Shown here: piece by piece, positions 2,989-16,295 of the stretch
How positions within the stretch are numbered: position 1 is the first letter of the stretch
How the letters are laid out: each line of letters starts with the position of its first letter
Assembly (NCBI GenBank): GCA_963769025.1
Contig: CAVYKI010000003.1
Location: 448,001-512,000, forward strand
Reading direction: 5' to 3'
From: an uncultured Verrucomicrobiae bacterium
GTDB lineage: Bacteria > Verrucomicrobiota > Verrucomicrobiia > Chthoniobacterales > Chthoniobacteraceae
Length of the DNA: 64,000 nucleotides
Notes under the pieces: model-generated
Database searches by the model: none
Seen by the model: the letters and a program-made list of their open reading frames with translations, nothing else
What the model was told of the DNA's origin: nothing
Made by a program: the position numbers and the translations under genes

Positions 2989-3405
2989 ATGGCTGCCACT
3001 CTCCACCTCGAAATCGTCACTCCTGAGTCACGCGCTTACAGCGACGACGTGGAGCTGGTCGTACTTCCCGCCATCGAGGGCGAGATGGGCGTCTACCCGC
3101 AGCACGTCCCGCTCATCACCGCGATCACGCCCGGTGAACTCATCGTCACCAAGGACGGGAAGACGACGCACCTCGCCGTCGGCGAAGGTTTCGTCGAGAT
3201 CACCGGTGACAAAGTCAGCGTCTTGGTGGACATGGCGCTCACCGAGGAATCGATTGACGAAAAGGCTGCCGAAGAAGCCGTGAGACGTGCCGAAGCACGC
3301 CTCAAGGAAGAACACATCGGCGAGGAGGAATCTGCGATGGTACAGGCGGCCATCGCCAAGTCGCTCGCCCAGCTCCACGTCAAGCGCCGCCGGCGCTCGG
3401 TGTAG
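2989..3405 (+). CDS. atpC: F0F1 ATP synthase subunit epsilon
   Basis: LHLEIVTPE..VVLPAIEGEMGVYPQHVPLIT..GEGFVEI; helical C-terminus; intact ORF. Confidence 0.95.
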   Translation: MAATLHLEIVTPESRAYSDDVELVVLPAIEGEMGVYPQHVPLITAITPGELIVTKDGKTTHLAVGEGFVEITGDKVSVLVDMALTEESIDEKAAEEAVRRAEARLKEEHIGEEESAMVQAAIAKSLAQLHVKRRRRSV

Positions 3406-3414
3406 ATTCGACCG

Positions 3415-3481
3415 GAATCTCGCGGCTCAACAGGGGCTTCACTTTCGCGGCGAGCTTCCGCGCGCTTTTGCGGCGAGATTC
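3415..3481. other. Long imperfect hairpin between the convergent atpC and Rieske genes (possible terminator or mRNA stabiliser)
   Basis: Outer arms gaatctcgc ... gcgagattc with inner cgcgg/ccgcg; no clear U-tract. Confidence 0.3.
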
Positions 3482-3965
3482 AGACCTGCGTCTGCTTTGG
3501 ATTGATCCAAATCTCCCCGGCTCGCACCTCGACCGGATAGCGAGGCAGCGGACGTGGCGGCGGACCGGCAAGCACGCTGCCATCCCTGGCGCTGAAAAAT
3601 CCCTCGTGGCACGGGCAATAGAATTGCCGCTTGTCGTGCTGGTAATTCACCGGGCACATGAGGTGTGTGCAACTCTGGCTGTACGCGGCGAACTCATTTT
3701 CACCCAACCGCACGAGGATCGCGGGATGATGCTCCGTGGGATATGCGAAGAGCTTGTAGCCACCGACCGGCACCTCCTCGACGCGCGCGATGAACTTCGG
3801 CTCGGTCGCGGCAGGCATCGGGAAGAGTTTGTCCTTCGCAAGCCAGCCTGCACCGACGGCGAGCGCGGAGCAGCATGCGACCTTCGCGAATGCCCGGCGT
3901 GTCACATCGTGCTCGGCTGATTGGCGGATGGGGTAACCGGATTTCCAATGAGACTGGTCAGACAT
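3480..3965 (-). CDS. Rieske [2Fe-2S] protein with N-terminal twin-Arg-like motif and short hydrophobic anchor
   Basis: CTHLMC and CPCHEG boxes, GPPPRPL; VTRRAFAK followed by hydrophobic stretch. Confidence 0.9.
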   Translation of the reverse strand: MSDQSHWKSGYPIRQSAEHDVTRRAFAKVACCSALAVGAGWLAKDKLFPMPAATEPKFIARVEEVPVGGYKLFAYPTEHHPAILVRLGENEFAAYSQSCTHLMCPVNYQHDKRQFYCPCHEGFFSARDGSVLAGPPPRPLPRYPVEVRAGEIWINPKQTQV

Positions 3966-3974
3966 CGGGTGTAA

Positions 3975-4676
3975 TCAGTGGCAGGTGCAGGTTTCTGAGC
4001 AACGCGCGCCGAGTTCGGCCTCATTCCAGACCGCAGCGCCCGCAGCATCCGGCGCTCCGGCGCGGGTAAGTGAAAACGGATCGAAGTCCTTTCCCTCCCA
4101 CGGAAGGAAATCGAGCACCTCGAACGGCAGCGCCTTCAACTCCGGCGAAGTCATCATGTTCACCTTCGTGCGCACGGTCTGACGGCCAAATTGGAACTCA
4201 TTCACGGGCTGCTCGCGGCGGAATTTCTCAATGTATTCGCGCGGACCGTAGTAGAGCGCGCCGCTCGGGCAGACCGTCGCGCACATCGGCTTCTTCCCGA
4301 CGCTCGTGCGGTCGTAGCACATGTCGCACTTCATCATCAGGTCGATCTCGACCTTCATCTTCGGCACGCCGAACGGGCATGCGATCACGCAGTTCGAGCA
4401 CGCCACGCAACGCGGCTTGGCTGCGCTGTGGACGACGCCATGGTCATCCTGCTTGATCGCATCCGCCGGGCACACGCGCGCGCAGGTCGGATCCTCGCAG
4501 TGCATGCAGACGACCGGCGCAGTCTGCACTCCGGTGGAGCGATGCACGTATTCGAGATGGATCATCGGCTGGCCGCGATGCGTGCCGCATTCCCCACAAG
4601 CCTGCACGCACGCCTGGCATCCGATGCAGCGCGACGGATCGAGGAAGAATTCGTTGCCGTTCAGCGCGCCGTTCAT
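3975..4676 (-). CDS. DmsB/NrfC-like iron-sulfur subunit (four Cys groups)
   Basis: [54 protein letters not shown] overlap with upstream stop. Confidence 0.9.
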
Positions 4677-6895
4677 TTGGTTTTCAACGGCATCGGCTGG
4701 CCGGCGGCGGCGGGCTTGGGTTTCGGCGCGTCGGAAACTTTCTCCACCCGGCACGCACAGACCTTGAACTCGGGAATCTTCGATATCGGATCGAGCGCAC
4801 GGATTGTCACCTGGTTCGCGGCCTTCTTGCCCGGCCAGTGATACGGGATGAACACCGTGTCGGGCCGGATGCTCTTCACGACTTGCGCGGGCACGGTGAT
4901 GTCACCACGTCGCGTCGTCACCTTCACGATGTCGCGATCCTTGATGCCGAGCTTCTCGGCCAGCAGCGGGTGCATCTCACACAGCGGTTCGGGGTATTGA
5001 TCCACCAGGCCGCCGATGCGTCGCGTCTGCGTACCGCTGAGGTATTGCGAGACGACGCGGCCAGTCGTGAAAAAGATCGGGAACTCCGCGTCCACATCCT
5101 CGGCCGGCGGCCGGTAGTCGTAGGCGTGGAATTTCGCGCGCCCATCCGGGTGATGGAACTTCCCGCCCTCAAACAAGCGCGGCGTGCCGGGATGCTCGGG
5201 CGCGGGGCACGGCCAAAAGACGCCCATGTTGTCCTCGATCTTCTCGTAGGTCATCCCGCTGTAATCAATCGGCCCGCCCTTCGATGCCGCGGCGAGTTCG
5301 GTGAAAATCTCCCCGGCGCTCTTGTAGTGGAAGAACTTCTCCTTGCCGAGCAGTTCGGCCAGTTCGCAGATGATTTTCCAATCCACCCGCGCGTTTTCGG
5401 GTGGCGAGACCGAATTGCGCAGCCGCACGCAGCGCCCTTCGCCGGTCGTCACGGTGCCCTCGTCCTCCTCCTGCAAGGAACCCGCGAGCACGACGTCCGC
5501 GTAGCGCGCGGTCTCGCTGAGGAAGAAGTCTATGCAGCCAAAAAACTCCAGCTTCTCGAGCGCCTTGCGCGTGCGCTCGGAGTCGGGGATCGAGACGAGC
5601 GGATTGAAGCTGATCGAGAGCAGCCCTTTGATTTCCCCCCGCTCGATCGCGTCAATGATCTCGCACGCCGTGAGCCCCTGTTTCGGCAGCTCCGGCTCGG
5701 GGATTCCCCAGAAATCCGCGATAAACTCACGGTGCTCCGGCTTGCCGATGTCCCGCCCGCCGGGGAGCTGGTTGCACCTCTGTCCATGCTCCCGTCCACC
5801 TTGTCCATTCCCCTGCCCGGTGATCGTGCCGTACCCGGAGCCGGGCTTGCCGATGCGTCCGGTGGCGAGCACGAGATTGATGTAAGTGAGCACGTTCTCC
5901 GTGCCCTTCGTGTGATGCTCGATTCCGCGCGCGTGCATCAGCATCGAAGTCTCCGCCGGGCCCCACATCTCCGCCGCGGCGATGATGCTCTTCGCCGGGA
6001 CTCCGGTGATCCTTTCCGTCACCTCGGGCGTGAATTTCTTCACCAGCTCGCGGACTTTGTCGAAGTCGGTCGTGTGCTCGGCGATGAACTTCTCGTCCGT
6101 CCACCCGCGCTCGATCATCACGTGCAGGATGCCATTCGCCAGTGCGCTGTCGCGGCCCGGCCGCACGGGCAGGAAAAGGTCCGCCGTCCGCGCGATCGGC
6201 GTGATGCGCGGATCAATGACGATGATTTTCGCGCCCGCATCACGCGCCCGCCAGACGTAGTCGGTGAGGATCGGGAAGCACTCGGCGAGGTTCGTCCCGG
6301 TGAGGATGATCACCTTTGCGAGCGGGATGTCGCTCCACGGATTCGCCGCGCGATCCACGCCGAACGCCATGCGGTTCGCCGAGCCCGCGGCGACCATGCA
6401 GAGACGGCCGTTGTAATCAATGTTCGCGGTCTGCAGCGCGATGCGCGCGAACTTGCCGTTGAGGTAGGCCTTCTCATTCGTCATCGATGCGCCCCCGAGA
6501 AATGCAAATGCGTCCTTCCCGTACTTGGCCTGGATGTCCTTGATCGCATTCGCCGTCTTGTGCATCGCCTCGTACCAGCCGGCCTCGCGGAAGCCGGTCT
6601 CGTTGCGAATGAGCGGCGAGAGGAGACGGTCCGGGTGGTCGTTCTGCATGTAACGCTTCACGCCCTTCGGACACAGTTTGCCTTGGTTCACGGGGAACTC
6701 CTCCCACGGCTCAAATCCGATGACCTTGTTGTCCTTCACCTTGAGCTGGATGCCGCACTGCACGCCGCAGAAGCAGCAGTGTGTCTTCACGAGCTTGTCC
6801 GGCTCGCCGTTGTTCCAGCCACCCGCCGGCGTGTGCGCGGGCGTCGGACCGTAGTTCTCGATGTATTTTTCTTCCGGTAAAGTGAGCGTGGCCAT
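4673..6895 (-). CDS. Molybdopterin oxidoreductase, Nas/Nap/NarB-type nitrate reductase catalytic subunit
   Basis: [16 protein letters not shown] 4Fe-4S motif, NGRLCM (Cys Mo ligand as in Nas/Nap), [11 protein letters not shown]-terminal [10 protein letters not shown]; no signal peptide; nitrate cluster context. Confidence 0.88.
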
Positions 6896-6905
6896 GAATG
6901 GTTAG

Positions 6906-7988
6906 TCAGCGGCCGATCGTGCGGCCTTGGTTGAGCGCGAGCAGCCGACGGCGGCATGCGGGGCAGATTTCCTGATAATGCACCTCGCCCTGCGCGCCAT
7001 CGAAGCGGTAGTCGAAGCCGAGTTGGTCGAGCACGGTCTTCAGATCGTCCACGTGCATCTGGCTTGCGAAATCTTCCCCACACCGCCGGCAATGCGCCCG
7101 CGTTCCCGCTTCGCCGACCTTCTTGTAGCGGCTCACGCACAGAGAACACGTGCGCTGGAACATGTGAAAAAGTTTTCCGAACGGAATGTAGAGCAGAAGA
7201 GAGACGACGCTGACCATGTGGACGATCGCCCAGATGCCGTGCCCGCGCCCGGCGAGAAATTTGTAGCTCACCGTGAGCGCGAGGCCCGTCGCTGTGACCG
7301 CGAGGATGAGCAGCAGCGGGACGATGTCCTCGGAAAAGGTCTGCGTAGCACGCTCACCCGCATCGGTGAAGCGCCGCCAGCCTGCCATCGCCAGCCCGAC
7401 GAGCACGAGGATCGCCGAGATGTTCAGCAGATTGAACATCAGAAACGCCTTGAAGCTGTGGACGCTGAAGCTGTCCACATTCACGCCGAACGCAGCCACA
7501 TGGTACATCTCGGCGTCGTCGGCAAAGGAAGCGAAATGGATCCAGCCGAACACCAGCGGGAAAGTGATCGCGAATGCGAGCGTGCAGCCGCCCGAAAGGC
7601 ACAGGTGCATGATCCAGCGGTAGCCGCCACGCCGTCGGATGAAATCCTGCGCCACGAAATTTCGCGCCAGCGCATAGCCGAGAGTCCCCGCTCCGTGCGG
7701 CACAGGCACGCTGACCTTCTCGGCGCGCTTCTCCGCGTGAGGCGCCGCTCCGGCCCGACGGAACAGGAGCTCAATCCCCCGCCGGAAGTACATCCGCGAA
7801 GGCGGCCTCTGCGCCCACACCGAGAAGCGATAGCCGACCGCAAACGCCGCCATGAGCGCCCCGATCGCGTAACCGGTGAGCGCCGCATCGAAATGCCGCA
7901 TCCCGATGGAACCGATAACAATCGCCGCGGCGGTCGCGCCTGCCAGCATCACACCCGCGATGAGAGCCGATCGGTTCGGGAGCTTCAT
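6906..7988 (-). CDS. NarI-like polytopic membrane protein (putative cytochrome b) with Cys-rich C-terminus
   Basis: Several TM segments; VHMVSVVSLLLYIPFGKLFH (His pair 18 apart, PFxKLxH); WIMH; tail CSLC, CRRC, CPAC. Confidence 0.65.
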   Translation of the reverse strand: MKLPNRSALIAGVMLAGATAAAIVIGSIGMRHFDAALTGYAIGALMAAFAVGYRFSVWAQRPPSRMYFRRGIELLFRRAGAAPHAEKRAEKVSVPVPHGAGTLGYALARNFVAQDFIRRRGGYRWIMHLCLSGGCTLAFAITFPLVFGWIHFASFADDAEMYHVAAFGVNVDSFSVHSFKAFLMFNLLNISAILVLVGLAMAGWRRFTDAGERATQTFSEDIVPLLLILAVTATGLALTVSYKFLAGRGHGIWAIVHMVSVVSLLLYIPFGKLFHMFQRTCSLCVSRYKKVGEAGTRAHCRRCGEDFASQMHVDDLKTVLDQLGFDYRFDGAQGEVHYQEICPACRRRLLALNQGRTIGR

Positions 7989-7997
7989 GGGCGCGGT

Positions 7998-9711
7998 TCA
8001 CTCCTCATTGGAAAAGAACGCCTGGAGCGTGTTGAGATCGTGCCGCGCGGTGAAGGCTTGGAAGGTCTCACCCTCCGTGCGGTGGCGCAGGTAGCCGCGC
8101 AACATTTTCTCGATGAGCGGCGGCAGACTGTCGAAGGCGATGCCGTTGAAAACCTGACGGCCCACGGCCTGATGCGCGCCGAATCCGCCGCCGACAAAGA
8201 CGTGATAGCCGTCCTGACTTTCACCCATGACTTTCACCTTCGTGCCGAGCAGGCCGATGTCACCCATGTAGTGCTGCGCGCAGGAATTCGGGCAGCCGGT
8301 GACGTGGATGTTCACGGGCTGGTCCAGCTTGATGCGCTTGTCGAGCCAGTCGGCGAGCTTGAGCGCGTGGCCCTTCGTGTCGGCCTGCGCGAATTTGCAA
8401 TACGAGTTGCCCGTGCAGGCGATGAGGCCGCTGCGGAGGTTCGACTGCTCCGTGTCGAATCCGACTTTGCGCAGCGCCTTCTTCACCGTTGCGACGAAGT
8501 GATCAGGCACGTTCGGGATGATGAAATTCTGCCAGACCGTGAGCCGGATTTCGCCGGAGCCGTAAAGGTCGGCGATCTCCGCGATGCGGATCATCTGCTT
8601 TGGATTGATGTGGCCGACGGGCACCGCGACGCCGACGTAATTCAGCCCTGCCTGCTTCTGCGGAAAGATGCCGACGTGCGAATGCGGCAACGTCTGACTC
8701 GGATGCTGGGCAGCCGCCAGATCGAGCGGCGCGCGCTGAAGCTGATAACCGAGCAGCTTCTCCGTCTCGGCGAGATACTGATCGAGCGACCACTTTTCGA
8801 GCAGGTGCTTGAGACGCGCCTTCTTCCTGTCGGTGCGGTTGCCATTCGCGATATAGACGCGCACCACCGCGGCGACGACCTTGTTCAGTTCGGCGGGCTT
8901 CACCAGCACCCCGATGTCGCGCGCGAACGCCTTGTGCCCGGTCGCGCCGCCGAGCGCGATGCGGAAGAAAACCTCGTCGCCGACCTTCACGGCCTTGCAG
9001 CCGATGTCATTCGTGTCCTCGACCGTGCCGATCAGTCCGCCGCCGTCGTAGGCGATGTTGAATTTGCGCGGCAGATCGTAAAAGGCGCGGTCGTTGATGA
9101 TGAGGTGCCCCATCTCGTGGCAGAGCGGCATCACGTCGATCAGCTCGTGCGGATCGATGCCCGCCGTCGGGTTTGCCGTCAGATTGCGGATATTGTCCGC
9201 GCCCGACCCCCGTGTGTGCAGGCCGACATGCTGGATGCGCTGCACAAACGCCGGCGTGTCCTTCGGCTGGATGAGCCGCATCTGCAGGTTCGCCCGCGTG
9301 GTGATCTGCACGTAGCCGGTCGTGAGATCCTTCGCGACTGTGCGCGAGTTCGCGGAGCTGGAAGGTGCGGAGCTGTCCGCCGGGAATCCGCAGCCGCGCC
9401 ATGAAGGCCTCCTTGTTTGGCGTGAGGTAAAAGAGCCCGTTCCACTTGAATCGGAACGTATCCTCCTTGTCCGGCGCCTTGTTCGTCGCCGCGTTCTCAA
9501 GGAGCTGCGGATAGGCGTCGAGCGGATGCAGTTCGCGCTTCACGCGCTCCTCGAAGATGAGGTCTTCCAGCGCGACCTTCGTCTCAGTGGCGGGATTCGG
9601 CGCGACATCGCCAAATCCGACTCCGCGCGCGGAGATGCCGGCGAAAAGCCCGGTAAGATACTCCTTCTGCTCAGCGGTGAAATTCTGTGCGTTGGTGGCT
9701 GTGGCACTCAT
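7998..9711 (-). CDS. nirA: Siroheme/4Fe-4S nitrite reductase, NirA type (indel ~9345)
   Basis: [41 protein letters not shown] and GCPNSCAQH ligands. Confidence 0.9.
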
Positions 9712-9714
9712 CGT

Positions 9715-11505
9715 TCAATAGACATCGCGCTGGTAGCGTTTCTCGCCCTTGAGCCGCTCGACGTAGGCCTTTGCCTCATCGCTGGATTTTCCGCCCGCCG
9801 TCTCGATGATCTGTGTGCAGCGCGGCGTCCACATCCTTCGCCATGCGCGAGGCGTCGCCGCAGACGTAAAAGTGCGCGCCGGCTTCGAGCCACGACCACA
9901 GCTCCGCGGCGGCTTCGAGCATCCGCGATCTGCACGTAGATTTTCTCCGCCTGGTCGCGGCTGAAGGCGAGATCGAGCCGCGTGAGATGACCGTCCGCCA
10001 CCCAGCCTTCGAGCTGCTCCTGGTAGAGGAAATCGGTCGCGCGTTTCTGATCGCCGAAGAAGAGCCAGTTGCGCCCCTTCGCTCCGGTCGCGAGGCGTTC
10101 CTCGAGGAACGCGCGGAACGGCGCGATGCCGGTGCCGGGGCCGACCATGATCATCGGCGTGTCGCCGTTCGTCGGGCGGTTTGAAGCCATGCGACGGCTG
10201 GATGTAAACGGGCACGTCGCCGGTCTCACCGACGCGGTCGGCAAGGAAGGTCGAGGCGATGCCCTTCCGGCTGCGGCCATGCGCATCGTAGCGGACGGCG
10301 GCGACGGTGAGATGCACTTCGTCCGGATGCGCCTTGAGGCTCGATGAGATCGAGTAAAGGCGCGGCGCAATCTTCTTGAGCAGCGCCACGAATTCCTGCG
10401 GCGCGAAGCGAACCGGTCAGACATCCGAGCACGTCCATGACTTCGCGTCCGTAGAGCCATTTCTTCAGCTCGTCCTTTTTCGACGGATCGAGCAGCGGCG
10501 CGAAGATGGCGTCCGGCGAATGCTTCGCGACGGCGGCTCAGGAGTTCGGCGGATGGTTTCGTGATGTCGAAGTGCTGCGTCAGCGCGAGCCGCAGCGGCA
10601 GTTCGCCATCCACGGTCTTGACGGCTTCCTCGCCGTCACAGCGGAGCGTCGCGAGAATTTCGCCGACGAGCACCGGACAGTTGCTCGGGAAAACGCCGAG
10701 CGCGTCGCCCACTTCGTAGGTGAGCCCGCTGCCTGCGAGTCCAGATCTCAAAATGCCGCACGTCCTTGCCGGAGCCTGTCGGCGCTGAGCCTGCGATTCG
10801 TGAGGAGCCGCGCCGGGAAAGGCTTCTTCCGCGACCAGGCCGATGCGCCTTCGGATTCCACGGTGGCGCTGCCGTTGGAACCGTTGGCTCCGGGCTGCGG
10901 CTTCACCGCTGCGCCCAGCGCATCGAAAACGCTCGCCGTCCATTCGGCTGCGGGAGTTTCGTATTCCACGTCGCACTCCTTCCGGTCGGCTGACGCGCTT
11001 CGCGCCGAGCGCGGCAAGGCGCTCGTCGCAGAATCTCCCGAACTGGCAGAACGCCGAATAATTCGTGTCACCGAGCGCGAGCACGCTGTAGCGCACGTTT
11101 TCGAGCTTCGGCGCGGCGTCGCTGTTCAGCCATTTCCAAAATCCCTGCGCCATGTCCGGCGGATCGCCGTCGCCGTAGGTGCTCGTGATCACGAGGACGT
11201 TCTGTTCCTTCGTCAAATCCACGTCGGAGTACTTGTCCATGCTCACGAGCTTCGGCGCAAAGCCGCGGCCCTCGGCGACCTTCGGCGGTCTTTTTCGCGA
11301 GCCCTTCGGCGGTGCCGGTCTGGCTGCCGTAGAGGAGAACGAGCGGCGTCTTCGGGCCGGCGTCCAGGCCGAGCGTGGAGGCGAGCGCTTCCGCTCCGGG
11401 CGGGTTGGCGTTGGAGAAAACACCGGCGAGAAAACCGTTCAGCCACATCCGCTGTTCGGCGGTGAAGGGGGCGTTTTCGGGGATGAATGGAATGCGGTTC
11501 ATCAT
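9715..11505 (-). CDS. CysJ-like diflavin (FMN/FAD) NAD(P)H reductase (several indels)
   Basis: [57 protein letters not shown]-terminal YQRDVY. Confidence 0.88.
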
Positions 11506-13150
11506 CGCGAAGTCACGAGTTTCAAAGCCAGGGCGATGCACGCGGCGAGCAGCAGCCAGAAGCCGGTGCGGTAGAATCCGAGCGGATTGCGTTCGATGAG
11601 GGACGTGCCCTTTTGAAAGAACGGCTCGACGCTGTCCGGGTGTTCGAGGTCGAAGGCCAGTTCGCTGAAATGCCGGTAGCGACGCTCGGGATTGATGCTG
11701 ATCGCGCGCAGGATGACGTGGTCGAGCCACGGCGGAATGATCTGGGTTCAGAGCGCTCGGTGGCTTCGGCGGATGGAAAACGGGCGACTGGAAGCGCTCG
11801 ATTTCGCCGAACGGAAACTTGCCGGGTGAGCGCCTCGTAGAGCGTGACGCCGATGGCGAAAATCTCGGTGCGTTCCGAAATCGGCTCGCCGTGAAATCGC
11901 TCCGGCGCGAGGTAGCTCGCCGTGCCCGCGCGAGACGTGACGCTGAAGACTGCCGCGGCGCTGCCGAAGTCGATGAGCTTGAAGCGCAGCTTGGCGTAGT
12001 CGGAGACGACGAGCACATTCTCGGGTTTCACGTCGCCATGCACCAGGTCGAGTCCGAGCAGGCGCTGGCCGGCCTTGGCGAGCATCCTGCCGAGCGCCAC
12101 AGCTTCATCCGGGCCGAGCGCACGCGCCTTGAGCACGCTCTTGAGACTCGGCGCCTCGACGAATTCCTGGACGTAGTAGCGCGCCGTGGCCCTCTCGGGC
12201 GTGAAGGCCGCGACGAACAGGTCGGGCGCGGCCTCCGCGGCACGCTGCGCGTTCCATTCCTCCTTGATGAAGCGCGCGAGGATCTCCTCGTCGTCGCGCG
12301 CTTCGAGCGGCGCGAACTTGATCGTCCAGCGCTGGTCGTCCTTCGTCGCGAGCCATACGCGGTCACTGTGCTGAAACGGACGGACGAGTTCGTAGCCGTC
12401 GATCACATCGCCCTTGCGCAGGTGTCCGGAATCTGGAGCGGGAGCTGGCTCACGGCGCGCAGCATACCAGCCCTCACGATATCGATCACGATCGCACTCG
12501 CGTCATCGAGCGTCTCCTCGGTCGCGAGTTCGCGCGCCTGTTGCACGATGGCGCGGGCGGCGGTGTGATGGGTGAGCCGCTCCGAGAGGACATCATCGCT
12601 CAGCACGTTGGAAACGCCGTCGGAGCAGAGGAAGGCGATGTCGCCGTCGCGCAGCTCGGTCTCGAAGCAATGCGGCTCAACGTCAGGCGCGAGGCCGATG
12701 GCGCGCTGGAGGACGTGGGAGAATGTGCGGTCATTGATGACGTGATCGTGCGAGAGCTGCGAGAGCTGGCCGCCGCGTGAGAGATAGACGCGCGAGTCGC
12801 CGACATTCAGGCCGAAGAGCCGGTTGCCCTCGATGACTGCGACCGAGAGCGTCGAGATCATCTCTGGTGCGGAGTGCCTCACGAGCGATTCGTGGTGCAG
12901 CGTGTGGTTGATGATTTTGGTGAACTCCGAGAGAGCGCGCTGCGGGCTCCAGCTAGCCGGGCGCACGGCGTAATTGGTCATCAGCGATTTCACAATCCGC
13001 CTGGCCGCCTCACGTGCATCGCGCGCCGCGCCCGCGCCGTCGGCGAGCACGGCGATCACGGTTTCGTCCCACGCTTTCACGGCGAAGGAGTCCTCCGATT
13101 CCGCGCCGTCCCGCTTTGCGCACGCCGTAGCTGGTGAAGTTCACTTTCAA
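11502..13150 (-). CDS. Bifunctional PP2C-type phosphatase / Ser-Thr protein kinase with C-terminal TM helix (indels)
   Basis: PP2C: VLADG, NVGDSRVY, LCSDG, DDAS; kinase: TIKF, HGDVKPEN, DFG, GTASYLAPE; tail GFWLLLAACIALAL; TTG start inferred. Confidence 0.85.
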
Positions 13151-13161
13151 TATTTCAGGGC

Positions 13162-14373
13162 TCAAATCCTCGCCGCTGAGACCGCGCCCCACGTCGTGCG
13201 CCAGCGGGTCTTGACCAGTTTCAGTCCGATCAGTGCGAAGAGGCAGAGGCTCGCGAAGACGAGCAGTCCGCCGAGATAGCTGCCGAAGTGCTCCTTGCTC
13301 TGGCCCATCATGTTCGCGAGCAGGAATCCGCCGAGGCCGCCGCCGCAGCCGACGAGGCCGGTCATGAGCCCGAGTTCCTTGCCGAAGCGCTGTGGCAGGA
13401 GCTGGAAGACGGAGCCGTTGCCCATTCCGAATGCGCCGCATGCGACGAAGAATGCCGCGACATTCAGCCAGAGGTTTTCGATGAGTCCGCCGAGAATGAG
13501 CGCGACGCACGCGACGCTGTAATAGACATGCAGCGAGCGGATGCCGCCGATGCGGTCTGAAATCGCGCCGCCAACCGGGCGGCCGAGTGCGCCGATCGCC
13601 GTGCAGAGTGCAACGAGATCGCCCGCCTGTGACGGTGAGAGGCCGAAGCGATCCTTGAAATACATGCCGAGCGAGTAGGCCAGGCCGACGAAGCCGCCGA
13701 AGGTGACGGTGTAGAAGAAGCAGAACCAGTGAACGTCCTTGTCGCGGAACATGCCGAAGTAGTCGCGGAGCTTCTTTGGCGTCGCGGGGTTCGGCGGCTC
13801 CTTGGAAAAGATGATGTAGATCGCGAGCACGAATACCGCCGGTATGAGCGCGAACCCGAACACCGCCTCCCAGCCGTAGGCGGCGGCGAGACGCGGTGCG
13901 AGCAGCGAGTCGATCACCACACCGATGTTCCCGGCACCGGCGAGACCCATCACGAGGCCCTGCATGTTCGGCGGGTACCAGCGCCCGGCCTGCGGCATCG
14001 CCACTGCGAAGCTCGCGCCTGCCACTCCGAGGACCATGCCCATCAGCAGCGTTGCCTCGTAGTTTTTCAGCCCGAAAATCCACGCCACGGCCAGTCCGGT
14101 CATCACGACGAGTTGCGCGATGATCCCCGTGCGCTTTGCCCCGATGCGATCCACGAGCAGCCCGAGCCCGAGCCGGAAGACGCCGCCAAACAGGATCGGC
14201 ACCGAAACCATGAAGAACCGCTGCTGTGCGCTGAGATTCAGCGACTCCGGCGCGGCGATCTGGTTCGCGAGGACGCCGAGGAGCGTCCAGACCATGAAGC
14301 TGTAGTCGAAGTAGAGGAACGCCGTGACGAGCGTCGGGAAGTGGCCTGCCTTTTTGAGCGCGGAGAGGTTCAA
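13162..14373 (-). CDS. narK: NarK/NasA-family nitrate/nitrite MFS transporter
   Basis: GHFPTLVTAFLYFDYSFMVW, GVAGASFAVAMPQAGRWYP, FGMGNGSVFQLLPQRF, GLVGCGGGLGGF; TTG start inferred. Confidence 0.9.
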   Translation of the reverse strand: MNLSALKKAGHFPTLVTAFLYFDYSFMVWTLLGVLANQIAAPESLNLSAQQRFFMVSVPILFGGVFRLGLGLLVDRIGAKRTGIIAQLVVMTGLAVAWIFGLKNYEATLLMGMVLGVAGASFAVAMPQAGRWYPPNMQGLVMGLAGAGNIGVVIDSLLAPRLAAAYGWEAVFGFALIPAVFVLAIYIIFSKEPPNPATPKKLRDYFGMFRDKDVHWFCFFYTVTFGGFVGLAYSLGMYFKDRFGLSPSQAGDLVALCTAIGALGRPVGGAISDRIGGIRSLHVYYSVACVALILGGLIENLWLNVAAFFVACGAFGMGNGSVFQLLPQRFGKELGLMTGLVGCGGGLGGFLLANMMGQSKEHFGSYLGGLLVFASLCLFALIGLKLVKTRWRTTWGAVSAARI

Positions 14374-14428
14374 ATGGGAGTGTTGGTGGTTGTTTTCGAT
14401 GCACCCCGAAAGGTGTGCGCTCCCCCTT

Positions 14429-14444
14429 AGCCGATGCGATGCCA
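14429..14444 (-). promoter_or_regulatory. Putative sigma54 -24/-12 promoter of the narK..Rieske operon
   Basis: Minus strand TGGCATCGCATCGGCT (GG-N10-GC); lacks the consensus TT; followed by a UUCG hairpin in the leader. Confidence 0.55.
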
Positions 14445-14480
14445 GCACGGCTCCACTGACAAGATGAGGGCTCTTCAAAG

Positions 14481-14511
14481 TTTTCATGGAAAAGATGCAT
14501 TCCGTTCATAC
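14481..14511. promoter_or_regulatory. Putative LysR operator, copy 1
   Basis: ttttcatggaaaagATGCATtccGTTCATac; T-N11-A dyad; 24/31 identical to 21455-21485. Confidence 0.7.
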
Positions 14512-14632
14512 CTCTCCCCTGACAGAGGGCGGCGATGCCTTTATGTGCGGCGTGAAACAGCCGGTTCACTTCCTGCACTGCCCAAATTTTTTTTCCAGCG
14601 CCGGAAATCATCCGGCGTGGTGTGTTTGGAAT

Positions 14633-14669
14633 TGCACAGGCTGCGCATTCCGCGTGCGCAAAATGCGCC
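14633..14669. promoter_or_regulatory. Tandem 15-bp dyads, candidate enhancer (bEBP) sites
   Basis: TGCACA-ggc-TGCGCA (14633-14647) and TGCGCA-aaa-TGCGCC (14655-14669), 22 bp apart. Confidence 0.45.
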
Positions 14670-14735
14670 GTCAGGCCCGGCTGTATCGCTGTGTAGCACG
14701 CCGGCGTTTTCCTCAATGAACGGCGTCGCATCGCA

Positions 14736-14862
14736 TGGAGCGCTGGCACCTCGTCGGCAGGGTGGCGCGGGATTTGTCACGCCTCACGGATAGCAGAACG
14801 ATGGGATCTGCCTGCCTCGGGTGAGCGAATGGCTTCCTGCCGGCGAGGACGCCAGCGCTCCA
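14736..14862. repeat. REP-doublet (REPIN-like) inverted repeat
   Basis: tggagcgctggcacctcgtcggcagg ... cctgccggcgaggacgccagcgctcca. Confidence 0.75.
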
Positions 14863-14876
14863 CGGAGGATGCCGCG

Positions 14877-16295
14877 TCAGAACGTGATCGTCGCCTGCAC
14901 GTAGCCGAAGTCAGCGTCGCTGTGGAAGCCGGTGTCCTTGAGGTATGTGCCGGAGAAGAAGTGGCTGTACCCGCCCTGCACTTGCAGATACTTGTTCACG
15001 TTCCACGTCACGACGAAGGCCAGTTCGGACCCGACGTAGGAGTCCGCTGCCCTGGAAGCCGCGTTCAACGGGCGCACGGCGGTGAGGCCGTTTGCGCGGT
15101 ACCACACGTCGTTCGTGTCCGCGAGCCAGAAGGAATTGAAGTCCAACTGCGCGGTGACGTCCTTCGCGGGCGTCACTTTGAAGCTCAGCATCGTGTTGTG
15201 CAGATTCTGCCAGGCGAAGAGATCCATGACCCCGTAGAACTTGTGGTTCGTCGGGAACAGGTTCTGGAAGGTGCCGATGCTGCCATCCGCGGAATTTCCG
15301 TCACCCGACGCGTAGTTGTATTCGGCGTAAAGGCGCGGCTTCAGCGGCGCGTCGAAGTTGTAGCCGATGCCGGCGGCTGCGGCGAAGGCCTCGAGATTCA
15401 GCCCGCGCACGTCGCCCACCTGATAGGCGAGCTCGGTCATGAATTCCAAGCCATCGAGCTTTTTCGGATCGCCTTTCACCCGGGTGCCGAGCGTGACGAA
15501 GTCGCTGTGCCGCGCGTTCGATCCCGTCGTGACCGGTGCGGCGAGCCCGCCCTGCACATTCGAGGTATTCCCGCGCGGCTCATTCACGACCAGCGAGTAG
15601 AGATCGAGCGTGCCAAAGGGCAGCGAGTCCAGCGTGGCGTAGATGCCGCTGAAGACGAGCCCGCGATTCGTCTCGGTGCCATTGAAGAGATCGGACTGGT
15701 TGTAGTGCTTGCCGGTGATCACGACGGGCGTGGAGGTGAAGGCATCGATGGAGAAGCCCTTGCCCTTGTACGTGAGCTTCACGGCGTCGAACGTGCGGCC
15801 GAAGTTGTTCCACTCGAAGGCACCGACGAGACGCTCATCGCCGTAGGAGAGAATCTGCCGGCCCACCTTCAGGCCCCACGAGGACTTCGAATAGTCGGAG
15901 ATGTCCACGTATGCCTGACGCAGGTCGAATGAGTCGTCGCCCTCGGCACCGGCGGCGCCGGGGATCAACGGACGGCCGGAGAAAAACTCGCGGCTGTCCT
16001 GCGCCTGTCCGTAGATTTTCAGCCACGGCACGGGCTTGAGCATCATGCCGATGCGGAAGCGCTGGAGCAGCCAGCCGTCGTCGGTCACGGCATTGACGCC
16101 GCTGCGGAAATCGAAGTTGTTGTCGCGGATTTCCCAGCGGAGGCGCTCCTGGATGTCGAAGACGACCGTGCCGTCTGCGAAGCTGAGCAGCGGACCGGGA
16201 TCGGCCTTTTTCGGCTCGGGTGTTTTCGCGGGGCCGGCGATGGCGTTGCCGGCGAAGAGGACGGCAGCAAACAATGTCGTGATGTGTGGTTTCAT
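14877..16295 (-). CDS. Alginate-export-family outer-membrane beta-barrel (probable nitrate/anion porin)
   Basis: Signal peptide; LQRFRIG, DLRQAYV, KVGRQILSYGDERLVG..WNN.GRTFD, FPTNHKFYG; C-terminal F. Confidence 0.85.
   Translation of the reverse strand: MKPHITTLFAAVLFAGNAIAGPAKTPEPKKADPGPLLSFADGTVVFDIQERLRWEIRDNNFDFRSGVNAVTDDGWLLQRFRIGMMLKPVPWLKIYGQAQDSREFFSGRPLIPGAAGAEGDDSFDLRQAYVDISDYSKSSWGLKVGRQILSYGDERLVGAFEWNNFGRTFDAVKLTYKGKGFSIDAFTSTPVVITGKHYNQSDLFNGTETNRGLVFSGIYATLDSLPFGTLDLYSLVVNEPRGNTSNVQGGLAAPVTTGSNARHSDFVTLGTRVKGDPKKLDGLEFMTELAYQVGDVRGLNLEAFAAAAGIGYNFDAPLKPRLYAEYNYASGDGNSADGSIGTFQNLFPTNHKFYGVMDLFAWQNLHNTMLSFKVTPAKDVTAQLDFNSFWLADTNDVWYRANGLTAVRPLNAASRAADSYVGSELAFVVTWNVNKYLQVQGGYSHFFSGTYLKDTGFHSDADFGYVQATITF

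Follow-up and report, generated by a model that had tools for sequence, protein, structure and literature searches.

Bacterial nitrate reductases are sorted as soluble Nas, periplasmic Nap and membrane-bound Nar enzymes. The window analysed here, a stretch of 64,000 nucleotides from contig 3 (CAVYKI010000003.1, positions 448001-512000) of an uncultured verrucomicrobial genome (5.3 Mb, 83% complete, with Chthoniobacter and other Verrucomicrobiota as its closest relatives), carries on its minus strand a four-gene module that combines a NasC-type molybdenum (Mo) subunit with a four-cluster iron-sulfur (FeS) protein, a membrane protein of the NarI family and an anchored Rieske protein. The module is best read as a membrane-bound nitrate reductase of new composition, which in its working would be most like NarGHI. 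The initial annotation of this stretch had placed it outside the Nas, Nap and Nar classes; this is a fair statement of its subunit composition, but the catalytic subunit itself belongs to the NasC clade.

Some published accounts bear on such an arrangement. In the available part of Heylen and Keltjens 2012 (PMC3475470), a short (729-aa) NasC of B. bataviensis is reported to be linked to iron-sulfur and Rieske-type genes, a linkage which is shared with other Bacillus and is read there as a possible alternative assimilatory system; the account is a genome note, and a membrane subunit, the topology and a mechanism are absent from that part of it. This cluster is likely to be the same module. In the accessible text of the family-wide phylogeny of Wells et al. 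2020 (PMC7331816), the canonical four-cluster and membrane-anchor subunits are said to accompany none of the Nas/Nap/Aio/Fdh enzymes, and to the statement as given there the module provides a conserved counter-example. A description of the full four-gene set was not found in a literature search that had most subscription journals outside its reach.

The four genes lie directly downstream of nirA, and all four open reading frames (ORFs) are present on the minus strand at the coordinates given initially. The first encodes a cytochrome b-like membrane subunit of the NarI family (6906-7988; 360 amino acids (aa), six predicted transmembrane helices, PF02665). It is followed by the genes for a NasC-type catalytic subunit of the Mo-bis(pyranopterin guanine dinucleotide) (Mo-bisPGD) type (4673-6895; 740 aa, with the Pfam domains Molybdop_Fe4S4, Molybdopterin and Molydop_binding), a four-cluster [4Fe-4S] ferredoxin subunit (3975-4676; 233 aa, Fer4_11) and a Rieske [2Fe-2S] protein with a twin-arginine signal or anchor (3480-3965; 161 aa, PF00355). 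Nine bases separate the nirA stop codon from the cytochrome b start, ten the cytochrome b stop from the Mo start and nine the FeS stop from the Rieske start, and the Mo stop and FeS start overlap as ATGA. For the FeS gene the initial annotation had given a start at 4754, which is a GTG inside the Mo gene; the start is more probably at 4676 (MNGALNG..., 233 aa), since the relatives begin just before an EFF(L/I)D motif. The hybrid architecture that had been proposed for these genes, in which a NasC/NarB-like Mo subunit, a DmsB-like FeS protein, a NarI-like protein and an anchored Rieske protein are encoded together and linked to nitrate, was borne out by the profile searches, the Mo tree and synteny.

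Scanning genome contigs with the membrane protein returned 51 loci, mostly from Verrucomicrobiota. In 49 of the 50 loci with room for it, the Mo gene follows the cytochrome b gene directly, and where at least 4.6 kb of downstream sequence is available the four genes stand in the same order in 28 of 29 related loci, a recurrence that is more than chance. The sole exception, L051, has a C-terminal fragment only. Outside the phylum, the scan found one Ilumatobacteraceae metagenome-assembled genome (MAG) and one MAG labelled Methylomirabilota, in which the Rieske gene is cut at the contig end. The four-gene set is also carried by four Deinococcus plasmids and occurs in Brevibacillus laterosporus. 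Co-conservation of the four genes, which the initial annotation had made a touchstone of its proposal, thus extends beyond the loci of the phylum to Deinococcus, Brevibacillus and the Ilumatobacteraceae MAG, and the module ranges over Verrucomicrobiota, Deinococcota, Bacillota and Actinomycetota. Among 1.84 billion representative proteins, a profile search matched 1353 clusters at E <= 1e-3, 875 at 1e-10 and 237 at 1e-30. An atlas look-up further gave candidate clusters in Acidobacteriota.

The genomic context links the module to nitrate. A nirA gene is present in 29 of the 51 loci and nirA or narK in 33, and a trio of narK, PP2C phosphatase and kinase genes, as in the window, in 17. A narK gene adjoins the module in Verrucomicrobia as well as in Deinococcus, Brevibacillus and the Ilumatobacteraceae MAG. 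The proposal that the enzyme is used for assimilation fits the window and the loci with nirA, but it is not general. In the Deinococcus plasmid locus that was viewed, the module is flanked by narK genes on both sides and no nirA is in view, and in Brevibacillus laterosporus it adjoins a NarK-family transporter (322 bits, over the cut-off) and a Crp/Fnr-type regulator. Among 150 listed matches of the profile search, five were chosen by length and scanned, and three of them (the metagenomic representatives P0127, P0162 and P0170) are natural fusions in which an N-terminal NarK-family transporter of about 400 aa is joined to the N-terminus of the NarI-like protein; a fourth, itself a fragment, keeps a remnant of the NarK C-terminus. 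The fusions tie the membrane protein to nitrate transport. They probably also explain, by annotation spill-over, why the unfused 360-aa protein is labelled in databases as a major facilitator superfamily (MFS) transporter ('MFS transporter, NNP family') where it is not simply called hypothetical. NarK has 12 helices with both termini in the cytoplasm; fusion at its C-terminus would therefore place the N-terminus of the cytochrome b-like protein in the cytoplasm as well.

The catalytic subunit is most similar to NasC. Against the NCBIfam model NF047855 (NasC) it scored 829.6 bits, with positions 17-707 of the 708 in the model covered, which makes NasC the best-scoring family, yet under the equivalog cut-off of 1100. 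The scores were 631.7 bits for the formate dehydrogenase alpha model TIGR01591 (cut-off 666.25), 273 bits for the NapA models (cut-off 904) and 146.9 bits for the large subunit of arsenite oxidase, TIGR02693 (cut-off 359). In a protein search of plasmid records, identities were 60% with four Deinococcus records, 49% with Brevibacillus, 47% with both Skermanella and Streptantibioticus, 45% with both Paenibacillus and Mycobacterium, and 36-38% with formate dehydrogenases. The annotated NasC-type relatives on plasmids adjoin nirB, nirD-like and narK genes.

In a quick IQ-TREE tree of 27 rows, none of which was dropped and five of which were NasC-type references (annotated plasmid genes, not biochemically characterised proteins), the Mo subunits of four-gene loci form a clade with support of 100 inside the NasC-type group. 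The 17 four-gene and NasC-type rows are separated from the formate dehydrogenases with a Shimodaira-Hasegawa-like approximate likelihood ratio (SH-aLRT) support of 100, and the proteobacterial NasA and NapA lie on the other side. The subunit thus nests in the Bacillus and actinobacterial NasC clade and not with formate dehydrogenases, in keeping with its first identification as a nitrate reductase. A division of Nas into two clades, of which the Bacillus type is the nearer to formate dehydrogenases, is also described in the accessible text of Wells et al. 2020 (PMC7331816). A previous tree of 22 rows, composed of four-gene sequences, proteobacterial and Bacteroidota Nas, four formate dehydrogenases and one NapA, had put the four-gene clade beside the formate dehydrogenases, a position that was reversed once the five NasC-type references were added; since the first set held no such references, its topology is considered to be a sampling artefact. 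In a sequence search of solved structures, FdhF-type formate dehydrogenases came out on top (498 bits). No Nas enzyme was among the rows returned, and this ranking was therefore set aside as biased and was not used for placement.

The active-site residues follow the same division. The motifs DYNGR(L/Y)CM and TGQGNGQG are common to the Mo proteins of four-gene loci and the NasC type, the window protein having DYNGRLCM, and the Cys-ligand motif is conserved in all 12 four-gene sequences aligned. The alignment also shows the four FS0 Cys in the window protein. Its ligand position reads Cys-Met; of the four formate dehydrogenase references, three read Cys-His there and that of B. licheniformis Cys-Gln, and all four have Arg where the window protein has Thr. 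The roles of these columns and of the FS0 Cys are those which we take to follow from the Nap and FdhF structures. The N-terminus is a conserved extension of 33 residues containing no twin arginine, unlike that of the NapA reference, so that the Cys-ligand enzyme without an export signal recognised at the outset is indeed encoded. The module differs further from Nap in its sub-threshold NapA score and in the absence of a cytochrome c gene among the four.

A Mo enzyme acting on formate, chlorate or another oxyanion, beside which the nitrate genes would be incidental or regulatory, is very unlikely. Such a substrate could be argued from the FdhF-type proteins that head the solved relatives by sequence, from the formate dehydrogenase alpha score, which is close to its cut-off, and from the position of the clade in the 22-row tree. 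However, the structure ranking is biased, the clade is firmly nested once NasC references are included, and where formate dehydrogenases have a (Sec/Cys)-His pair (Sec, selenocysteine) and Arg, the subunit has the Cys-Met and Thr seen in Nas and Nap; in this respect the subunit departs from FdhF and formate dehydrogenase alpha, in addition to scoring under their cut-off. Adjacency to narK in several phyla and the NarK fusions also speak against another substrate. No match to the NarG model TIGR01580 was found at E <= 1e-5 in the 83%-complete genome. Its other molybdopterin matches are to NuoG, on contig 9, and to an FdsA-like gene in fragments on contig 2, which leaves the window subunit as the sole candidate for a nitrate reductase detected there. 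The gene on contig 2 (145189-147868) is like that for the alpha subunit of NAD-linked formate dehydrogenase, with a NuoG-like N-terminus and a MopB domain, and is broken by frame shifts.

The FeS protein is DmsB/HybA/FdnH-like, with further resemblance to the beta subunit of formate dehydrogenase, HycB and PsrB/NrfC. It matches Fer4_11, and its best solved relative is FdnH (1kqf_B, 102 bits). Four Cys motifs are present, with 16 Cys invariant in the 13 sequences aligned, which agrees with the four-cluster DmsB-like partner that had been proposed. Neither a signal peptide nor a transmembrane helix was recognised. It is unlike NarH: TIGR01660 gave 31.8 bits against a cut-off of 524, and NarH-type proteins have about 500 aa compared with 233 here.

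The nearest relatives of the catalytic subunit at 45-49% identity, the nirB-linked NasC-type enzymes of Bacillus, actinobacteria, Skermanella and Deinococcus grandis, join it in one clade (support 100) and share DYNGR(L/F/Y)CM and TGQGNGQG, a cytoplasmic, signal-less state and a nitrate-assimilation context. The references differ in that they adjoin nirB and nirD, with no genes for a four-cluster ferredoxin, a NarI-like protein or a bc-type Rieske protein in the regions viewed. The window protein has an N-terminal extension and falls under the NasC equivalog cut-off, and its gene has no nirB or nasB beside it; the genes for the four-cluster ferredoxin, NarI-like and Rieske proteins are there instead. 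It could still be supposed, given the NasC-like catalytic subunit and the database labels of the membrane protein, that the window encodes an ordinary soluble NasC, and that its neighbours are an unrelated membrane redox or sensing unit travelling with nitrate genes. To this we give very little credence. The genes overlap or are spaced by no more than 10 bases, their order is strict across phyla, no diaphorase gene of the NirB/NasB type adjoins the Mo gene as in the NasC-type references, Mo subunits are regularly partnered by four-cluster ferredoxins of this family, and the 'MFS' label is probably accounted for by the NarK fusions.

The membrane subunit is NarI-like. It scored 24.7 bits against PF02665, just over the cut-off of 22.9, and 20.2 bits against the narI equivalog TIGR00351 (cut-off 105.55), and weak profile matches were obtained to QmoC, TcuB, TmcC, HmcE and NarI. 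An AlphaFold2 (AF2) model built from 19 sequences has a mean predicted local distance difference test (pLDDT) score of 80. With an exhaustive structure aligner, its top match was NarI (1q16_C; Z 9.9, root-mean-square deviation (rmsd) 5.0, 180 residues aligned), followed by CybB (Z 9.8), EtfD (8.8), the cytochrome b of hydrogenase-1 (8.4), b6f (7.5) and FdnI (7.3). In hhalign, helices 4-6 were aligned to E. coli NarI (probability 82.9, E 9e-6), with H257 paired to NarI H187 and H275 to NarI H205 in a common PF-x-(K/R)-L-x-H motif; H187 and H205 are presumably the haem ligands described in the NarGHI structure papers. The fold similarity to NarI and the aligned His ligands that the initial annotation had looked for were thus both recovered. 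H128, H151, H257 and H275 are invariant in all 19 sequences.

Charges in the loops of the membrane protein are unevenly distributed, with 13 Lys/Arg and 4 Asp/Glu in loop 60-121 and no Lys/Arg and 4 Asp/Glu in loop 147-178. On this pattern the cytoplasmic parts are predicted to be the N-terminus, the last 90 residues and loop 60-121, with loop 147-178 outside; about 150 conserved residues would be exposed to the cytoplasm and about 35 outward. In this charge-based topology the pair H128/H275 would lie towards the cytoplasmic face and H151/H257 towards the outside. The C-terminal part forms a predicted cytoplasmic, Cys-rich domain resembling a zinc ribbon; its Cys pairs are missing in L035 and L044, which are of the Puniceicoccales type, and the domain is therefore read as structural, probably serving for docking. 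Membrane proteins with weak profile matches to the membrane domain of the subunit, namely TmcC, HmcE, DsrM and QmoC, and the mycobacterial EtfD, matched by structure, offer a precedent: in the NarI-family conduits of sulfate reducers and in EtfD, a dihaem cytochrome b links a cytoplasmic FeS partner with partners on the outer face or with quinone. They differ in their other partners and substrates, and we know of none that pairs with a Rieske protein or a Mo enzyme.

The fourth protein is a Rieske protein of the bc/arsenite oxidase class. PF00355 scored 44.6 bits and the NirD/NasG-type PF13806 20.1 bits; the closest NCBIfam models were AioB, QcrA and PetC, with all subunit-specific models below their cut-offs. 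A twin arginine is invariant in the 18 Rieske sequences compared, where it lies in an (S/T)RRxF motif followed by a hydrophobic stretch, and all 18 have the boxes CTHLxC and CPCH with the extra Cys pair, which in outward-facing Rieske proteins of the bc type forms a disulfide. The AF2 model (pLDDT 89.8) consists of a 33-residue helix (residues 15-47) and a compact domain (57-155). The best profile and fold matches were the Chlorobaculum Rieske protein 8hn2, the Thermus Rieske protein, AioB and Kuenenia kuste4569, AioB aligning to the model with TM of about 0.72-0.75 and an rmsd of 1.2-3.0 over 113-119 columns. The Rieske partner had been described at first sight as anchored, and the PF00355 domain, the invariant twin-arginine motif, the long N-terminal helix and both Cys boxes agree with this. 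Because of the twin-arginine motif and the disulfide-type Cys pair, the protein is expected to face outward.

The region before the twin arginine is unusually conserved for a signal peptide, P12, E18 and H19 being invariant or nearly so. This would suit an arrangement in which all subunits lie inside, the twin-arginine stretch being vestigial or chaperone-binding, and in which the Rieske protein either relays electrons from the b haem to the FeS subunit or makes a NasG-like link to nitrite reductase. Two precedents are given in the available part of Heylen and Keltjens 2012 (PMC3475470), where NarG is said to have a non-functional remnant of a twin-arginine translocation (Tat) signal and Rieske-type NasG and NirD to serve Nas systems. 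Such an all-cytoplasmic complex is nevertheless quite improbable. Its Rieske domain is of the bc/Aio and not the NirD/NasG class, the Cys pair typical of outward-facing proteins is kept throughout, the charge distribution favours an N-in, C-out orientation, and the predicted helix is long enough to span the membrane.

With the bc1/b6f-type Rieske/cytochrome b complexes the module shares a Tat-type anchor, a small Rieske domain with both Cys boxes and a (predicted) dihaem cytochrome b partner. It differs in that this partner matches PF02665 only, not PF00033 or PF00032, that the cluster has no gene for cytochrome c1 or f, and that it offers no evident partner for a Qi site. The single PF00033 match of the genome is on contig 6, beside the Rieske gene of a separate bc-type pair.

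A further relative is arsenite oxidase, AioAB, which likewise consists of a signal-less Mo subunit of the Nas/Nap/Fdh branch and a small Tat-signalled Rieske protein. The iron-sulfur cluster of AioA is of the 3Fe-4S type. Unlike the module, Aio has neither a four-cluster ferredoxin nor a membrane anchor, and its AioA has no protein ligand to Mo (accessible text of Wells et al. 2020, PMC7331816), whereas the window subunit keeps the Cys ligand and all four FS0 Cys. By analogy with AioA on AioB, the Mo and FeS subunits could fold in the cytoplasm and be exported on the Tat signal of the Rieske protein, with the NarI-like protein as a quinol-oxidising anchor only; the product would be a Nap-like periplasmic enzyme made from a Nas-like one. 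The invariance of the Tat motif, a Rieske domain about equally similar to AioB and to bc-type proteins, and the lack of signals of their own in the Mo and FeS subunits, as hitchhiking needs, favour such export. It is also in line with the accessible text of Wells et al. 2020 (PMC7331816), in which AioA is placed next to NasC/NasA and probably diversified from them. We nevertheless consider an enzyme lying wholly outside unlikely, and rate it below one that faces the cytoplasm. The NarI-family anchors known to us pair with cytoplasmic partners, and the exposed parts of the membrane protein are, by prediction, mostly cytoplasmic. The narK gene adjoins the anchor gene or is fused to it, which is most sensible if nitrate is reduced inside, and NirA and all relatives of the NasC clade are cytoplasmic. 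In addition, the cluster contains no gene for a Tat chaperone.

We therefore favour, with moderate confidence, a single membrane-bound nitrate reductase with a cytoplasmic catalytic module, a dihaem wire and an outward-facing Rieske protein as its electron-entry site. The Mo and FeS subunits, both devoid of a signal peptide, would be on the cytoplasmic side. Nitrate would be imported by NarK and reduced in the cytoplasm by the NasC-type subunit, which may receive electrons through its FS0 cluster from the four-cluster ferredoxin. The ferredoxin, in turn, could dock on the cytoplasmic loops and the C-terminal domain of the NarI-family cytochrome b, within which two b haems would cross the membrane, the inner held by H128 and H275 and the outer by H151 and H257. 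On the outer face, the Tat-inserted Rieske protein, held by its uncleaved helix, would form or feed the site of electron entry, most likely by oxidation of menaquinol; a part for it in quinol oxidation at the outer face is expected by analogy with other anchored Rieske proteins of the bc type. By its design the enzyme seems to be connected to the respiratory chain and not to soluble donors. With quinol oxidised outside and nitrate reduced inside, energy could be conserved by a redox loop, as in NarGHI. In this organism the nitrite formed would be reduced to ammonium by NirA, which would be fed by the adjoining CysJ-like NAD(P)H reductase.

Several observations weigh against this assignment. 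In NarGHI, NarI alone suffices for quinol oxidation, which leaves the Rieske protein without a necessary role, and an electron on a high-potential Rieske cluster has no obvious path to the b haems. A Tat-signalled Rieske protein is able to export a signal-less Mo subunit, as in AioAB, and the nearest characterised relatives of the catalytic subunit, the NasC enzymes, are soluble. The match to NarI is only moderate for a helical bundle. Foldseek found nothing for the membrane model at E <= 0.001, with NarI at rank 50 and EtfD at rank 17, and the alignment to NarI takes in the C-terminal His pair only, leaving out the pair in NarI helix 2. H151 is Tyr in Brevibacillus, and H250 is not universal among the aligned sequences. 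Finally, only three of 301 sampled genomes of the phylum, the source genome included, match the membrane profile at E <= 1e-20; in this sample just six first-look candidates were scored per genome and many genomes were small, and the occurrence is read as patchy, not absent.

The Rieske protein may act as a two-electron gate, may split electrons in a bc-like manner with one passing to cytochrome c, or may accept electrons from a periplasmic donor. A bolder scheme is put forward only tentatively, as we doubt that it is correct. The Rieske protein and the NarI-family cytochrome would make up a new kind of Rieske/cytochrome b module for quinol oxidation, in which the low-potential b-haem branch crosses the membrane to drive the cytoplasmic NasC-type enzyme in place of ending at a Qi site, and the Rieske branch either supplies cytochrome c or oxidase of the high-potential chain or acts as a two-electron gate. 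Aerobic nitrate assimilation would then conserve energy and be coupled to respiration, and the pairing of NasC with a Rieske protein could be the stock from which AioAB arose.

The favoured complex would share with NarGHI a cytoplasm-facing Mo subunit, a multi-cluster FeS subunit and a dihaem membrane subunit of the NarI family, as well as NarK as a neighbour. It differs in its catalytic subunit, a Cys-ligand protein of the NasC clade with 740 aa compared with about 1240 aa in NarG, and in its FeS subunit, which is DmsB/FdnH-like and not of the NarH type. The membrane subunit, predicted to have six helices, ends in a Cys-rich domain, narJ is missing from the cluster, and a Rieske protein is added. 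If it works as proposed, the counts of nasA and nasC in soil and freshwater metagenomes include an enzyme that is possibly energy-conserving or dissimilatory, and the membrane subunit, so often labelled 'MFS transporter', needs re-annotation. The module is of real interest for specialists in the nitrogen cycle and bioenergetics. The proposal is testable in cultured strains, the cultured hosts of the Rieske protein and NarI-type cytochrome being Chthoniobacter flavus, Pelagicoccus, Brevibacillus laterosporus and Deinococcus species.

The minus-strand order of the whole cluster is narK, PP2C phosphatase, Ser/Thr kinase, CysJ-like reductase and nirA, followed by the genes for the membrane protein and the Mo, FeS and Rieske subunits. 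The narK gene (13162-14487) encodes a nitrate/nitrite transporter of the NarK family (MFS) that scored 257.6 bits against TIGR00886 (cut-off 311.7). The product of the PP2C gene (12403-13080) matched the Stp1/IreP PP2C model with 101.9 bits, below the cut-off, and the Ser/Thr kinase (11522-12406) was recognised from its translation. The CysJ-like diflavin reductase, with flavodoxin, FAD and NAD(P) domains, is encoded at about 9715-11505 in fragments in three frames, and nirA (7998-9711), of the sirohaem nitrite/sulfite reductase family, in two ORFs in different frames with one break near 9338. Promoter and terminator scans over 3300-15000 gave counts equal to those for shuffled sequence and were uninformative.

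The breaks in nirA and the CysJ-like gene are read as assembly insertions and not as marks of pseudogenes, because contigs from public runs do not have the bases concerned and the orthologues in locus L002 are whole. Compared with the window, single bases are missing from the public-run contigs at 9338, 9809, 9929/30, 10172/74, 10743, 10778 and 11284. In L002, nirA is a single ORF of 568 aa with NIR_SIR domains, and the CysJ-like orthologue is intact and matches PF00258, PF00667 and PF00175. The break near 9338 is thus probably a sequencing insertion. Eight of the 14 contigs of one public run aligned to the window at an identity of at least 99%, and among the listed pieces of that run across the four reductase genes there were no gaps, the four genes being intact. 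The first 3405 nucleotides of the window contain, on the plus strand, ATP synthase genes (the end of atpA, atpG, atpD and atpC), of which atpG and atpD are broken over several frames. As this essential operon is itself frame-broken, single-base assembly errors appear to occur across the contig, and they probably also depress the completeness estimate of 83%.

A gene for a protein of 76 residues with two predicted membrane helices was found 3' of the Rieske gene in Deinococcus (L052:12663-12893) and in the Ilumatobacteraceae MAG (L050:8157-8387). In a crude scan of 31 loci for hydrophobic segments, such a small gene was recorded in L050, a spurious-looking one in L020 and none in the other 29. 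The window has no room for it, with only 75 bases between the Rieske stop codon and atpC. The protein may be a lineage-specific fifth subunit.

In Brevibacillus laterosporus, a radical SAM gene (L065:274-1368; TIGR04053/haem b synthase, AhbD-like) lies beside narK and the module; such a neighbour would fit a haem-containing complex, or may be a coincidence. The PP2C phosphatase and Ser/Thr kinase genes sit between narK and the reductase genes in the window, and a fused kinase/phosphatase is encoded near the nitrate genes of the Skermanella locus L066. The pair may exert post-translational control over nitrate uptake. NirA and the CysJ-like reductase have similar N-termini (encoded at 9650-9711 and 11440-11505, respectively), with the motif FTAEQ(K/R)x(Y/W)L(T/N)G(L/F)(F/L)AG, which, judged from the translations, may be a shared docking or targeting peptide.

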